This document shows, piece after piece, positions 37,441 through 44,016 of a stretch of DNA of 44,016 nt. The DNA is from an uncultured Chitinophagaceae bacterium. GTDB taxonomy: Bacteria > Bacteroidota > Bacteroidia > NS11-12g > UBA9320. Every line of letters begins with the position of its first letter. The stretch's first letter is position 1. The notes below the pieces were generated by a model that worked only from the letters and a program-made list of their open reading frames with translations, was not told the origin of the DNA and made no database searches. A program made the translations under genes and the position numbers. The stretch spans positions 1 to 44,016 of the forward strand of contig CAYZWM010000005.1 of the NCBI GenBank assembly GCA_964482155.1. Direction: 5' to 3'.

Positions 37441-37456
37441 GTGACCCGACTGGGAT
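37441..37456 (-). mobile_element. tRNA 3'-end remnant, probable att core at the left edge of an integrated island
   Basis: Minus strand ATCCCAGTCGGGTCAC resembles T-loop end + T-stem 3' strand + acceptor 3' strand + discriminator of a Bacteroidota tRNA (Lys/Arg-like); followed by a terminator; no tRNA body upstream. Confidence 0.65.
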
Positions 37457-38055
37457 CATTAGCTGTGTCTTGTAAGTTGCTTGTATGTAGAGTATTAATT
37501 GTGATTATTTGTTAAGGTGGGGACAAACTATATCGAATTCCCAATCCAAAATATTAACGGTTCTTAGTTCACTTTTGGCTGACGTTTAACAACCCACTAA
37601 TTACATTTTTTTAGCCTTTTATCTCAAATAAACTGGATTTATGGTCGTCATAAAACGTATCTGGACTAGGGGGTAAATACCAGGCAGGTTGTGTAGATGT
37701 TGGGGTAAAAAAAACCTTGAAACTAAAATAAATGGGTTTTTTAAGCCTTATGTTTTTAAAATGATGTTACATCTTATAAAAAAACTTGATTCCATAATGC
37801 ACACTGGCGTTTTTTTCAATACTTCTCATTTGCCGTGAATGATTAGAATACGAAAAAAAGCATAGAATGTTTTGGTCAGTTAACACAATTCCAGAATCCT
37901 CAAGCCGAGCGACTTTCTTTTCGACGGATAGATTTAACTTGTCATCTTAGGGTAAAAACGGGTATTCTTATTGAGCTGGAGAACGCATTTTTCAATACGG
38001 ATGTCCAGTAAAAAAATCACTAGGTTTATCTATTTTCTATGACAAACAAAGATTC

Positions 38056-42500: not shown

Positions 42501-44016
42501 AACTACTCTCTCTGATCACCCGTATACGTATCAGAACAAAGACAGCCTGGATAAATGGGCTTCTGCCTGGATGCTTTCTGACATTAGGACGCCTTCGGGA
42601 GGGAAAATCTCCCTGGAATATGAATCAGACGATTATGCATACGTACAAAACAAACAAGCTATGACTATGACTCGGATCAAAGGAATTCGACAAGAACTTT
42701 CTGATCCAGATGAAAACAAACTTTACGGTGAGAATAACGACAATATCTGGTCGACCAAAATGAAGTTTAATGACGTTCGAGAGCCCAGACTATATATCAC
42801 ATTTGAAATGGACCCGGGAAGTGCTATATCTGATTATGTACCGGAGAATGACCTCATCTTTTTTAGTTTCAATGTTGACCTTGCCCGTAGAAGCGAATCG
42901 AAGGCCAATGAACAGGTGTCGGGCTTTTTTACCATCAAAGAATCAGGGGAAATAGAAGGAACCAATTTGGGATACATTAAAGTCCAACATTATGATTTAG
43001 GTAAGACACGGTCCGCCAAAGTTCACCCTGTCACTAAAATGGCATGGCAGTATGCGTTTTCAAACCTTCCTCATCTTATGAACCCCAAAGGGTCTACCAA
43101 ACGGAGTTCTGGAGCCGAGAAAATTGATGATGCGGTAAATCAGGCGATGGGTATAATTCCAGAATACCTTAAGTCTCTAATTGGAGAGTCGGCGTACTTT
43201 CAAGCTCACGGACATGCGCAGGAAGTGAATTTGTCCAAATCGTATTTGCGACTGTTAAGTCCAGATTCAAAAAAATTGGGAGGAGGTCACCGTGTCAAAC
43301 GAATAACTACGTACGATAATTGGGATCAGATGACGGGTAATTCGGCAGCTTTATCGAGCTACTCTACTGTTTATGACTATTCAACTGATCATCCAGACAA
43401 ATTAGGTGAAATCTCCAGTGGGGTAGCCATTTATGAACCCTTTGTTGGAGGAGACGAAAATCCGTTAAAAATGCCGATAAATTATGATGCGTTGGAAGAC
43501 GTTTATATTAAACGTCGAACGGGTATAATTGGTCCAATAACTATAGGTTATGACCTGGGACCCGTGGGAGAAGAGTTTTATCCAGCAGCAGGTGTAGGTT
43601 ACAGTAAAGTAACTGTTCGAAATGAAACACCAAATACAGACATTGTTAGACACCTATCTGGCAGAACGGAATATGATTTTTACACCGCATATGATTTTCC
43701 AACGAAGTCGTATATGACGACAATTGACAAGCGCATTAGACGATTTTCAACACCTGGTTTGGGTTTTACAGGAGTAGATAGCCTATCAAGAGATCGTGAT
43801 ATTACAGATTCAGATGGGAAAACAACAGGCACTGAAACCAAAAAAGGAACCTTCAAGTTTGGCTTGGACGTTACCGTAAAACTTGGTTATGCCGCTGCTA
43901 CACAAGGCTATTTGATTGAACAAAATGATATGCACGGTAAGCCTAAATCAGTTAGAACATATAAAAATGATGCCGTTGATCCAATTACATACAGTAAATA
44001 TTATTATAAAATCGAC
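39580..44016 (+). CDS. Giant secreted SpvB/TcB-like YD-shell protein, 5' part (at least 1479 aa; runs off the right edge; absent from ORF track)
   Basis: Manually translated with no stop from ATG 39580 to 44016: signal peptide ...PISAYA-LSGGPTPPE; MVDPFSGNVQYSLSLFEIGGYPISLTYS...GWVGLGWSL...RAMRGIPDD; later GKLTLQKI, VDRWG, AWMLSDIRTPSGGKISLEYESDDY, GGGHRVKRI, SSGVAIYEP, VGYSKVTV, NDMHGKPKS. Confidence 0.92.
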   Translation, partial: MLIQIRKSRWAKVVVIIMTAFMFMPLQYPISAYALSGGPTPPEYATFQKVGSGSMVDPFSGNVQYSLSLFEIGGYPISLTYSGDINPEQNAGWVGLGWSLQAGSIGRAMRGIPDDFKGDEVKKEINKKPRIIQSYDFQFHNKEGKQVELVGLNGGIRMNGLPTIVHDNYRGFGINYDVNMKFGVFNRIDSILSDTSTRWVPPLLPGNVTEIIKFDTTNKKDLPIMDFNTSYSSYDGNSYSVIPKVGFIDNGLNKLLNSKDKKVNILLGNPAFRFNTHTGLQSMGMTGKGFEYGKKNTFTVSNFGANFLTQSHVPSFNPDMHLSVWNTALSLEGDRIFSDKRAIAVKVTVSTEKITENTVNKKGYGCLYMNQGENTDDALLDHQQASMLIDKYTQSLPPTVSTYDVFNISASGLGGSFKVKYNSLGLISPPSQKISTLANPKIFIEIGAGTNWKIAGDLGLRHILKKTGRWDKNNDAADYLAFKKGEVNNDFEPFSFRNNFEFIETETDYHTSMGGQTATKFGLKRSYNGKLSAWKATSDLYGINNNKIQTISSELYNANRSPRQQSITYLTAEQAKEHGIQKKIQNYHFIPNGVNCESIFTVTTINSGGTDHHLSYEEIDRDYSYRKGHHLSEINVLQPNGMRFNFGLPLYQVEENKVSFSVKGDLSGKGLDDFLTSSTTYFNSGANPDDGIKNDKGIDNHYEQVTIPAYANAFLLTTILSTDYSDLGNDGPTTDDLGSYVKFNYAMPDYETHKDNPADPEYDPNHHLFNWRAPFENADWSRGYKSDELDDQGSFSYGKREQWYMHSIETKDEIAVFELADRVDGYGVTGRDGGVDGGGNRQKYLVGIKIYDRRAFERDGLSASPIKQIIMHYSHDLCNGITSYIDPGVPSFCNDHPLKELGGVYTSATKYSGGKLTLQKIEFIEGSLGMLTKDPYIFEYKTANPDYEYKSVDRWGTFHRKNTHQQVGVANDKQTTLSDHPYTYQNKDSLDKWASAWMLSDIRTPSGGKISLEYESDDYAYVQNKQAMTMTRIKGIRQELSDPDENKLYGENNDNIWSTKMKFNDVREPRLYITFEMDPGSAISDYVPENDLIFFSFNVDLARRSESKANEQVSGFFTIKESGEIEGTNLGYIKVQHYDLGKTRSAKVHPVTKMAWQYAFSNLPHLMNPKGSTKRSSGAEKIDDAVNQAMGIIPEYLKSLIGESAYFQAHGHAQEVNLSKSYLRLLSPDSKKLGGGHRVKRITTYDNWDQMTGNSAALSSYSTVYDYSTDHPDKLGEISSGVAIYEPFVGGDENPLKMPINYDALEDVYIKRRTGIIGPITIGYDLGPVGEEFYPAAGVGYSKVTVRNETPNTDIVRHLSGRTEYDFYTAYDFPTKSYMTTIDKRIRRFSTPGLGFTGVDSLSRDRDITDSDGKTTGTETKKGTFKFGLDVTVKLGYAAATQGYLIEQNDMHGKPKSVRTYKNDAVDPITYSKYYYKID

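Follow-up and report, generated by a model that had tools for sequence, protein, structure and literature searches.

Start of a widespread Tc/Rhs-like toxin cassette that probably has its own export route, on a contig from an uncultured Chitinophagaceae bacterium

Introduction

How giant polymorphic toxins that carry Sec-type leaders are exported from Bacteroidota is an open question, and the locus described here, a toxin complex (Tc)/Rhs-like cassette found at the 3' end of a 44,016-nucleotide stretch of DNA from an uncultured Chitinophagaceae bacterium (contig CAYZWM010000005.1 of assembly GCA_964482155.1; hereafter the window), bears directly on it. The window is the entire contig C5 (G000:C5) of an assembly of 421 contigs that is 96% complete with 2% contamination, and public contigs holding its 3' end derive from seawater metagenomes. 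Because the window is a whole contig, the cassette is visible there only as its first two genes, A (38387–39550, + strand) and C (39580–44016, + strand), the second of which is still open at the contig end. An initial annotation of this sequence proposed an island-borne, Sec-dependent Tc/Rhs-like delivery locus with two visible genes in one operon. Its core idea stands, in that the window appears to hold the 5' end of such a toxin locus, while the supports it drew from a tRNA-att boundary, a repeat-bearing leader, an island and a TANFOR-like adaptor fall away. Our analysis indicates that positions 38387–44016 are the start of a real and widespread toxin cassette of Tc/Rhs-like type, for which a dedicated export route is likely.

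A conserved cassette in Bacteroidota

The conservation of the locus was assessed by a pattern scan restricted to one genome per species, in which at least 576 of at least 598 pattern matches were confirmed. The 80 best of these at least 576 loci were kept with 10-kb flanks, and the neighbourhood counts given below rest on them; because these loci are the best-scoring and are mutually related, the fractions describe the sample at hand. Neighbouring genes were sought by tblastn and then by iterated hidden Markov models (HMMs) run over all open reading frames (ORFs) of the 80 loci, with length filters of 200–520 aa for A, 100–280 aa for B, 150–340 aa for D and 120–240 aa for S, such that members outside these sizes are missed. 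The titles of 77 of the 80 loci name Bacteroidota, and the other three, from two assemblies, are labelled Hydrocarboniphaga and Burkholderiales. Holders of the cassette include the cultured genera Chitinophaga, Flavobacterium, Niastella and Sediminibacterium.

The usual gene order across Bacteroidota is [U]-A-[S]-[B]-C-D-E-(immunity candidate), in which U encodes a predicted barrel protein, S a Skp-like protein and B a lipoprotein. In all 60 loci with at least 4 kb of downstream sequence, C has an E-like gene behind it on the same strand, and D follows C in 55 of the 62 loci with at least 1.2 kb downstream; this is the conserved neighbourhood of C homologues that the initial annotation had put forward as a check on its proposal. 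Upstream, in loci with at least 2.5 kb available, A is found before C in 45/68, B in 43/68 and the Skp/OmpH-like S in 30/68, with at least one of the three present in 65/68. The S protein (~178 aa, encoded upstream of B-C) matches OmpH in two loci with E values of 1e-11 and 1e-15. Genes inserted between C and D vary in content, encoding PKD domains, a combination of LRR, fn3 and Cleaved_Adhesin, or a type IX secretion system (T9SS) tail; such an inserted gene is mostly absent, and the closest orthologue of the window locus has none. A Por_Secre_tail protein is encoded between D and E in the genome's own copy and in one further locus, L099.

Continuation of the locus beyond the window

The genome from which the window derives contains four pairs of A and C, located on contigs C5, C65, C101 and C43. 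The cassettes on C65 and C101 run from A through a lipoprotein of ~200 aa (B), C (2274 aa and 2388 aa, respectively) and a ~220-aa leader protein (D) to E, which has a DUF6443 domain. The closest orthologue of the window locus is found in a relative (G002:C78), where C is 57–59% identical and the order is A-C-D-E without B, like that of the window; E of this orthologue is 3331 aa long and an 859-aa gene lies directly behind it.

Using the orthologous proteins as queries on contigs of the same assembly, we were able to find the continuation of the window locus on four contigs. C400 encodes residues ~1413–2061 of C. On C235 are found the end of C (86 residues), D (243 aa), a Por_Secre_tail protein of 858 aa and the start of E (881 residues), and the rest of E is divided between C300 (its middle 1468 residues) and C106 (its final 1048). 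These pieces are 50–63% identical to the orthologue versus about 30% for the paralogues, and the window's own E, pieced together from C235, C300 and C106, amounts to roughly 3300 aa. No exact end overlaps were detected among C5, C400, C235, C300, C106 and C38. A contig from a second sample tracks the window variant over its last bases and then extends for >100 nt into C400 sequence.

E possesses an Rhs-associated core, matched by TIGR03696 at 36 bits (cut-off 32.5) at C106:1983–2240, and the same model scores 31.3 bits on E of the G002 orthologue. Following the core on C106 are about 290 residues that belong to no family and form the tip of the protein. When E proteins from G002, G027, G009 and C106 are compared, they are alike up to and including the core motif and diverge past it. 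YD-type motifs are plain in the consensus of the E alignment (A5); the E profile matches RhsP weakly (E 0.0012), and the RHS repeat PF05593 reaches only E 0.12 and 13.2 bits in the G002 protein. A 226-aa lipoprotein ORF without a family starts 11 nt past the E stop on C106 and is an immunity candidate. In G027 (G027:C2:186406–193415, locus L021), four short ORFs downstream of the cassette each begin with the core motif, continue into a different tail and have small ORFs between them, an arrangement suggestive of orphan cassettes for toxin and immunity. At its C-terminus, the principal E of this locus has a stretch that looks, by eye, OmpA-like.

The initial annotation had predicted that the genes downstream would include an Rhs-core protein with a variable toxin tip, an immunity ORF, and a component with either a T9SS C-terminal domain or an outer-membrane barrel. 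The first of these is found as E on C235, C300 and C106, the second has a counterpart in the candidate lipoprotein behind E, and both forms of the third are represented, by the Por_Secre_tail protein inside the genome's own copy on C235 and by the barrel family U, which is linked to the cassette as described below. Farther along C106 (4460–7414), behind E and the lipoprotein ORF, are encoded a T9SS-tailed Endonuclease_1 protein (E 1e-38) and a T9SS-tailed FG-GAP protein.

Protein C has a TcB-like fold

Gene C covers in the window the first 1479 of about 2200 codons of a giant secreted protein, and full-length copies in relatives have open frames of 1793–2438 aa. Sec-type leaders were judged throughout by inspection of N-termini, and those of C and A both run from a basic stretch through a hydrophobic one to a cleavage motif of small residues. 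The leader of C has a K/R-rich start, followed by the hydrophobic stretch and AYA before LSGGP.

No Pfam or NCBIfam family matches C; the Pfam models for SpvB, TcdB-mid (TcdB_toxin_midN/midC) and RHS are unmatched even at E 10. SpvB (PF03534) is likewise absent at E 10 from a full-length paralogue of C and has 0 matches in the genome. A sequence search of the PDB with the C profile returned 0 matches at E <= 1. The C family comprises 144 proteins at E <= 1e-10 among 8000 candidates, and among the 120 family matches listed, source names are either hypothetical or names derived from added domains, with 116 lacking a precomputed Pfam domain. The family consensus shows a YD-like motif at its end and no Rhs core.

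Residues 1–1200 of C were modelled with AlphaFold2 (AF2) from 36 sequences, giving a predicted local distance difference test score (pLDDT) of 71 and a predicted template modelling score (pTM) of 0.71. In a Foldseek search against the PDB, every one of the top ten matches of this model is a TcB or TcB-TcC chain (E 5.5e-7 to 4.5e-5), followed by Rhs effectors, teneurins and the SpvB N-domain; propeller proteins such as DDB1 appear only at E ~1e-3 with this model of residues 1–1200. Structural alignment with VIA-align paired the model with TcdB2-TccC3 (4o9x) at Z 14.3, with 284 residues aligned at a root-mean-square deviation (rmsd) of 4.0 and 18% identity (model 52–1017 versus chain 61–751). 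The corresponding values are Z 13.2, 241/320 aligned and rmsd 4.2 for the SpvB N-domain (6p0x), Z 14.5, 219 aligned and rmsd 3.1 for the Rhs effector Tse15, and Z 10.6–11.8 for teneurins. Residues 1–1200 of C are thus modelled with the fold of the TcB/SpvB N-terminal shell region, with large insertions. The TcB-like shell gene of the initial annotation is borne out in this sense, as a fold, and not as a member of the sequence family.

One of the insertions, at residues ~129–309 (window 39964–40506), is beta-rich with pLDDT mostly <50 and resembles small outer-membrane barrels (BamA, LptD, NanC and KdgM) at Z 4–6. We made no use of this likeness, as it is too weak and may be noise from a poorly modelled stretch.

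Protein A and the barrel protein U

Gene A encodes a 387-aa secreted protein (38387–39550, + strand). It is co-directional with C, with 29 nt between them, in agreement with the single operon of the initial annotation, and the Sec-type leaders of both products agree with the entry into the periplasm that it proposed. A longer frame with a TTG start opens at 38279 and is probably not used; the ATG at 38387 was taken as the start because a signal-peptide-like sequence begins there and because alignment A6 agrees. The N-terminus, judged by inspection to be a Sec-type leader, reads MNTIAHIVQKGTLFLFVLFTVTGLSAQ. A weak match to DUF928 (E 5e-5, 23.6 bits) falls under the 26-bit cut-off in the window protein, and the same family is matched above the cut-off in A of the paralogous cassette on C65 (34.5 bits) and of the relative G009 (27.1 bits). 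Searches of the ESM Atlas gave Ig_Rha78A_N and fn3 as leads for A; the clusters returned for U and A are unnamed Bacteroidota clusters only. By its sequence, A appears to be an Ig/fn3-like relative of DUF928. The initial annotation had called A a TANFOR-like adaptor, and this identity was rejected: A has no NCBIfam match, and TIGR02542 has 0 matches in the genome, where the control for this model was also silent.

A is the usual partner of the barrel gene U in related loci. U (~730–970 aa) lies upstream of A, divergent or co-directional, in 29 of the 63 loci with at least 4.5 kb of upstream sequence, and all 29 of these have A, equivalent to 29 of the 40 such loci in which A is present. A U-like ORF is found anywhere in the flanks of 33/80 loci. 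Three sequence subgroups of U are joined by hhalign at 97–98% probability over 390–603 columns. U lies directly behind E in G002, and in the genome of the window further copies are encoded beside the cassettes on C101 and C43. Among 41 relatives, strong full-length U matches (E <= 1e-69) occur in 12, namely all 11 strong holders of C and G031; because these kin are not independent, this co-occurrence is a pattern rather than a test.

Some relatives contain other U-related sequences. G031 (G031:C9:75825–78124) alone among the relatives has a strong U match while lacking any to C; its U is split in two, with four stop codons inside the second piece, and is likely a remnant of a lost cassette. 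Eight further relatives possess only a shorter related barrel with open frames of ~540–600 aa. This shorter barrel (e.g., G000:C218:3421–4380) matches the second half of the U profile (~329–758) with E values of 1e-13 to 1e-26 and is also found in genomes without the cassette.

U has no sequence-family match and no TpsB/POTRA Pfam domain. The AF2 model of the U protein encoded on C101 (33 sequences; pLDDT 75, >90 over most of the barrel) contains five strands, a helical hairpin of ~175 residues and then 22 strands, and U is accordingly modelled as a large outer-membrane beta-barrel of about 26 strands. Foldseek returned 300 matches at E <= 0.001, and nearly all of the 50 matches listed are outer-membrane barrels. 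VIA places MtrB first (Z 20.4, 445 aligned, rmsd 5.2, model 101–778), followed by TonB-dependent receptor barrels and porins at Z 17–18.

Prediction of a complex between U (residues 100–778) and A (residues 26–345) gave scores of 0.44, 0.54 and 0.36, versus 0.01 for the best control. The score mark used is reached by 58/80 solved complexes and by 2/110 mismatched pairs, but with scores of 0.60 or under by only 7 of these 80 complexes and by both of these mismatched pairs. The runs agree in at least 68% of contacts, with a partner pLDDT of at least 70. These predictions lend weak support to a U-A complex.

The region upstream of the cassette

A terminator-like hairpin is present at 37392–37438 (+ strand; inverted repeat I1, with 21-nt arms that are 81% complementary, a 5-nt loop and then a T-rich run), and it is the end of the upstream unit, ORF 36013–37281, outside the cassette. 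It is followed by a non-coding spacer (37439–38275) that contains no tRNA, known RNA family or meaningful repeats and has no nucleotide match to the closest orthologous loci, G002:C78 and L025; overall, ~950 nt before gene A are without a convincing ORF. The proximal upstream region of A (38276–38386, + strand) is common to the paralogous cassette on C65: 125 nt (38276–38400) are 82% identical to C65:5159–5283, the sole conserved piece upstream. Positions 38276–38386 are probably the promoter and 5' leader of gene A. Promoter-like sites are not enriched (5 observed versus 7.9 +/- 3.2 in shuffles).

The boundary features that the initial annotation placed here were not recovered. A tRNA/att site is rejected, as ARAGORN found 0 tRNA genes in the window (the whole genome gives 35 tRNA lines), Rfam gave 0 matches in the window at the gathering score, and the spacer's three short blastn matches to other parts of the genome lie outside tRNA genes. 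The long repeat-bearing leader is rejected as well, since the repeats are of chance size only: 37200–38400 contains just two direct repeats, each of two 15-nt copies at 87% identity, along with two short inverted pairs, and Tandem Repeats Finder (TRF) reports three tiny arrays with scores of 31–37 in the leader. There is no support for an island, as no GC step is seen and the two ORFs directly upstream have no Pfam or NCBIfam family, so that no integrase is identified there.

These two ORFs encode a very hydrophobic, probably polytopic membrane protein of 409 aa (34505–35734, − strand) and a 422-aa protein with a leader (36013–37281, + strand). Neither has a counterpart beside the orthologous cassettes of G002:C78 and L025, which fits different insertion contexts and proves nothing. 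Farther upstream, a run of five tailed T9SS substrates occupies 20498–34345, comprising a Peptidase_M43+Por_Secre_tail protein (20498–21925), a 987-aa Por_Secre_tail protein (23009–25972), a Recep_L_domain+LRR+Por_Secre_tail protein (27350–29272), a 390-aa Por_Secre_tail protein (31130–32302) and a CHU_C-tailed ORF (33845–34345, − strand). An EcKL/APH-like kinase (PF02958, E 5e-16), of a family better known from insects, is encoded at 32333–33301 on the − strand.

Comparison with known systems

A comparison of the cassette with Tc toxins (ABC; e.g., TcdB2-TccC3 and YenB-YenC) shows that C shares the TcB/SpvB N-terminal shell fold (Z 13–14), that E combines an Rhs-associated core with a variable C-terminal tip, as does TcC, and that the shell gene and the toxin-bearing Rhs gene lie within one operon. 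Unlike Tc toxins, the cassette has no Pfam matches to SpvB, TcdB-mid or RHS, Sec leaders are seen by inspection on every cassette part, C (about 2200 aa) and E (2800–3700 aa) are far larger, and there are the additional conserved D, a lipoprotein, a Skp-like chaperone and the barrel U, in hosts of the phylum Bacteroidota. A TcA component (VRP1, PF03538) has 0 matches in the window's own 96%-complete genome, with the control silent in all 14 genomes, and none is visible in the cassettes read; VgrG (Phage_GPD) also has 0 matches in that genome. This agrees with the initial annotation, which saw neither type VI secretion system (T6SS) nor TcA genes. The locus works like a Tc BC module and also like Rhs polymorphic toxins, and stands outside the Tc family by sequence.

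Among barrels, the ~26-strand model of U resembles those of the MtrB, LptD and usher types, with MtrB (Z 20.4, 445 aligned) as the best match. MtrB is a barrel that serves as an outer-membrane-spanning sheath for another protein. In contrast to these barrels, U lacks a sequence family and has a ~175-residue helical hairpin inserted in the barrel, and its modelled likeness to MtrB shows no function. Two-partner secretion (TPS) and contact-dependent inhibition (CDI) systems of type Vb (T5b) are a poorer comparison, as no TpsB/POTRA or TPS Pfam domain is found on U, C or E and the strands of the U model number about 26 instead of 16.

The 'TcdB/TcaC export pathway' class of Zhang et al. 2012 (PMC3482391), which in the portion of that article available to us consists of a leader, an SpvB domain and an integrin-like propeller and is listed for bacteroidetes, resembles the cassette in its signal peptide and SpvB-type start, RHS-type toxin, variable tips and orphan cassettes. 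It differs in that the SpvB domain and the propeller are undetected by sequence in the cassette, and the partners U, A, S, B and D are not found in that portion of the text. TANFOR toxins (Jana, Salomon and Bosis 2020, PMC7073777) are, in the part of the paper accessible to us, likewise giant polymorphic toxins of Bacteroidota with a Sec leader, an unsettled export route, for which T9SS is only speculated, and T9SS substrates nearby. Unlike them, E carries DUF6443 and an Rhs core, and the search with NCBIfam models, TIGR02542 among them, gave nothing at E <= 0.01 for A, for C or for the E proteins of G002 and C112; TIGR02542 has 0 matches in the genome, the control being silent. As far as these partial texts go, the cassette overlaps the class of Zhang et al. 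yet is distinct from TANFOR toxins. As to the families themselves, in the literature searched DUF6443 is unmentioned and DUF928 is mentioned in one unrelated paper only. No published description of the cassette was found in the full-text literature (subscription journals and supplements not covered; the supplements of the TANFOR and Zhang papers could list some of the genes), in keeping with the view of the initial annotation that this locus type had not been characterised.

Proposed mechanism and alternative explanations

These observations can be combined into an outline of how the cassette may act. All cassette proteins would cross the inner membrane via Sec, and the Skp-like chaperone and the lipoprotein would handle them in the periplasm. 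C would serve as a toxin-less TcB-like shell piece and E as an Rhs shell around its own cleaved C-terminal toxin, the two assembling into a Tc/Rhs-type capsule. The U barrel, probably with A, would carry or anchor this capsule across the outer membrane, from where the toxin tip of E could reach neighbouring cells while the lipoprotein behind E would protect the producer. The variable adhesin-like inserted genes may supply target binding. Taken as a whole, from Sec export through the C-E capsule, passage by U and A and tip delivery to immunity, we judge this outline to lean towards being correct; its weakest steps are the docking of C to E and the passage through U. We are much more confident that the locus is an Rhs toxin cassette. 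The fullest form of the proposal is an undescribed outer-membrane delivery system specific to Bacteroidota, in which U and A form a channel or anchor, a dedicated Skp-like chaperone and lipoprotein assist, and C docks the E capsule, making it a Sec-dependent relative of Tc that is without TcA or T6SS and acts in contact-dependent antagonism. We hold this form only tentatively, and it could well prove wrong.

Several points weigh against these proposals. The binding of C to E, the passage through U and the target are all matters that we infer. The TcB likeness of C is by fold only, with ~285 residues aligned across model positions 52–1017, and the Foldseek TM-scores of the model are only 0.08–0.09; the modelled part is the first 1200 residues, which puts the C-terminal ~1000 outside the model, and the C and E profiles are unlike one another (hhalign probability 1.6%). 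The cassette counts come from the 80 best of at least 576 loci, which are kin to one another. U is unseen upstream in 34/63 loci, including all 17 of the S-B-C type, and the flanks fetched stop short of the region past E. U does not adjoin the window's own copy of the cassette, and the closest, matching U (54% identical) is on contig C38. A frame break is present in C on contig C400, near base 300. Finally, the T9SS translocon (SprA) is present in the genome, which makes another export route possible.

By that other route, the giants would reach the surface via T9SS, perhaps piggy-backing on T9SS-tailed adhesin-like proteins, and U would be an unrelated porin or anchor. In addition to SprA, this explanation draws on the five T9SS-tailed proteins upstream in the window and on the Por_Secre_tail protein between D and E in the genome's own copy and in L099, and the available part of PMC7073777 reports T9SS substrates enriched near TANFOR toxins and speculates on T9SS export. 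Against it, Por_Secre_tail and CHU_C were not detected in A, in the full-length C of C65, in D or in the full-length E of G002, by models that do match neighbouring genes, and T9SS export of the giants themselves is therefore without support; the gene inserted between C and D is variable, mostly absent and missing from the closest orthologue, and the strength with which U and C are linked phyletically speaks for U being a dedicated part. We consider export by T9SS unlikely, and of the two routes named in the initial annotation, T9SS or a dedicated barrel, it is the barrel that is linked to the cassette. Release without any dedicated outer-membrane channel, by which a periplasmic capsule would leave in vesicles or through lysis of a subpopulation, seems to us more doubtful again. 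Canonical Tc toxins are released by lysis, according to the part of PMC10847048 available to us, and many loci have no U in their flanks. Outer-membrane biogenesis is suggested instead by the Skp-like chaperone and the barrel, and no holin or endolysin is visible in the ORF lists of the cassettes examined, which were not family-searched throughout. Every part of the cassette, moreover, has a Sec leader by inspection, and canonical Tc proteins are not known to carry Sec leaders.

The cassette might also be a teneurin-like apparatus for surface adhesion or cell-cell recognition, whose Rhs shell has a structural part to play and whose main role is something other than killing. The match of teneurins to the C model, the PKD, LRR, fn3 and Cleaved_Adhesin domains of the inserted genes and the Ig/fn3-like nature of A would all suit such a function, yet an Rhs core with variable tips, a small gene behind it and orphan core-plus-tip arrays are the signature of polymorphic toxins, and we find the adhesion explanation improbable. 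The least probable reading is that the window copy is a decaying pseudogene relic, as might be thought from the frame break in C400 and from the spread of the locus over five contigs without exact end overlaps. The break is probably an assembly fault: we read it so because a second-sample contig (depth 2.9) crosses the position with the frame open, while contigs of the probable source run stop on either side and leave C400 positions 249–292 uncovered. The remaining pieces are open over 881 to 1479 codons, which also speaks against decay.

Conclusions

The preferred reading, a toxin cassette with its own barrel-based export route, lets the export question be put to a definite group of five to seven genes. 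Four of these belong to no named family, and the group includes a candidate for a dedicated outer-membrane barrel as well as a TcB-like protein that would work without TcA. Its occurrence in cultured genera makes the question testable. If the model fails, the locus would still stand for a large family of Rhs toxin operons that is unannotated and deserves a name. If it is true, it would represent a new secretion or delivery route and would widen the uses of the Tc/Rhs capsule, and the cassette with its own barrel may thus be an undescribed way of exporting such toxins.

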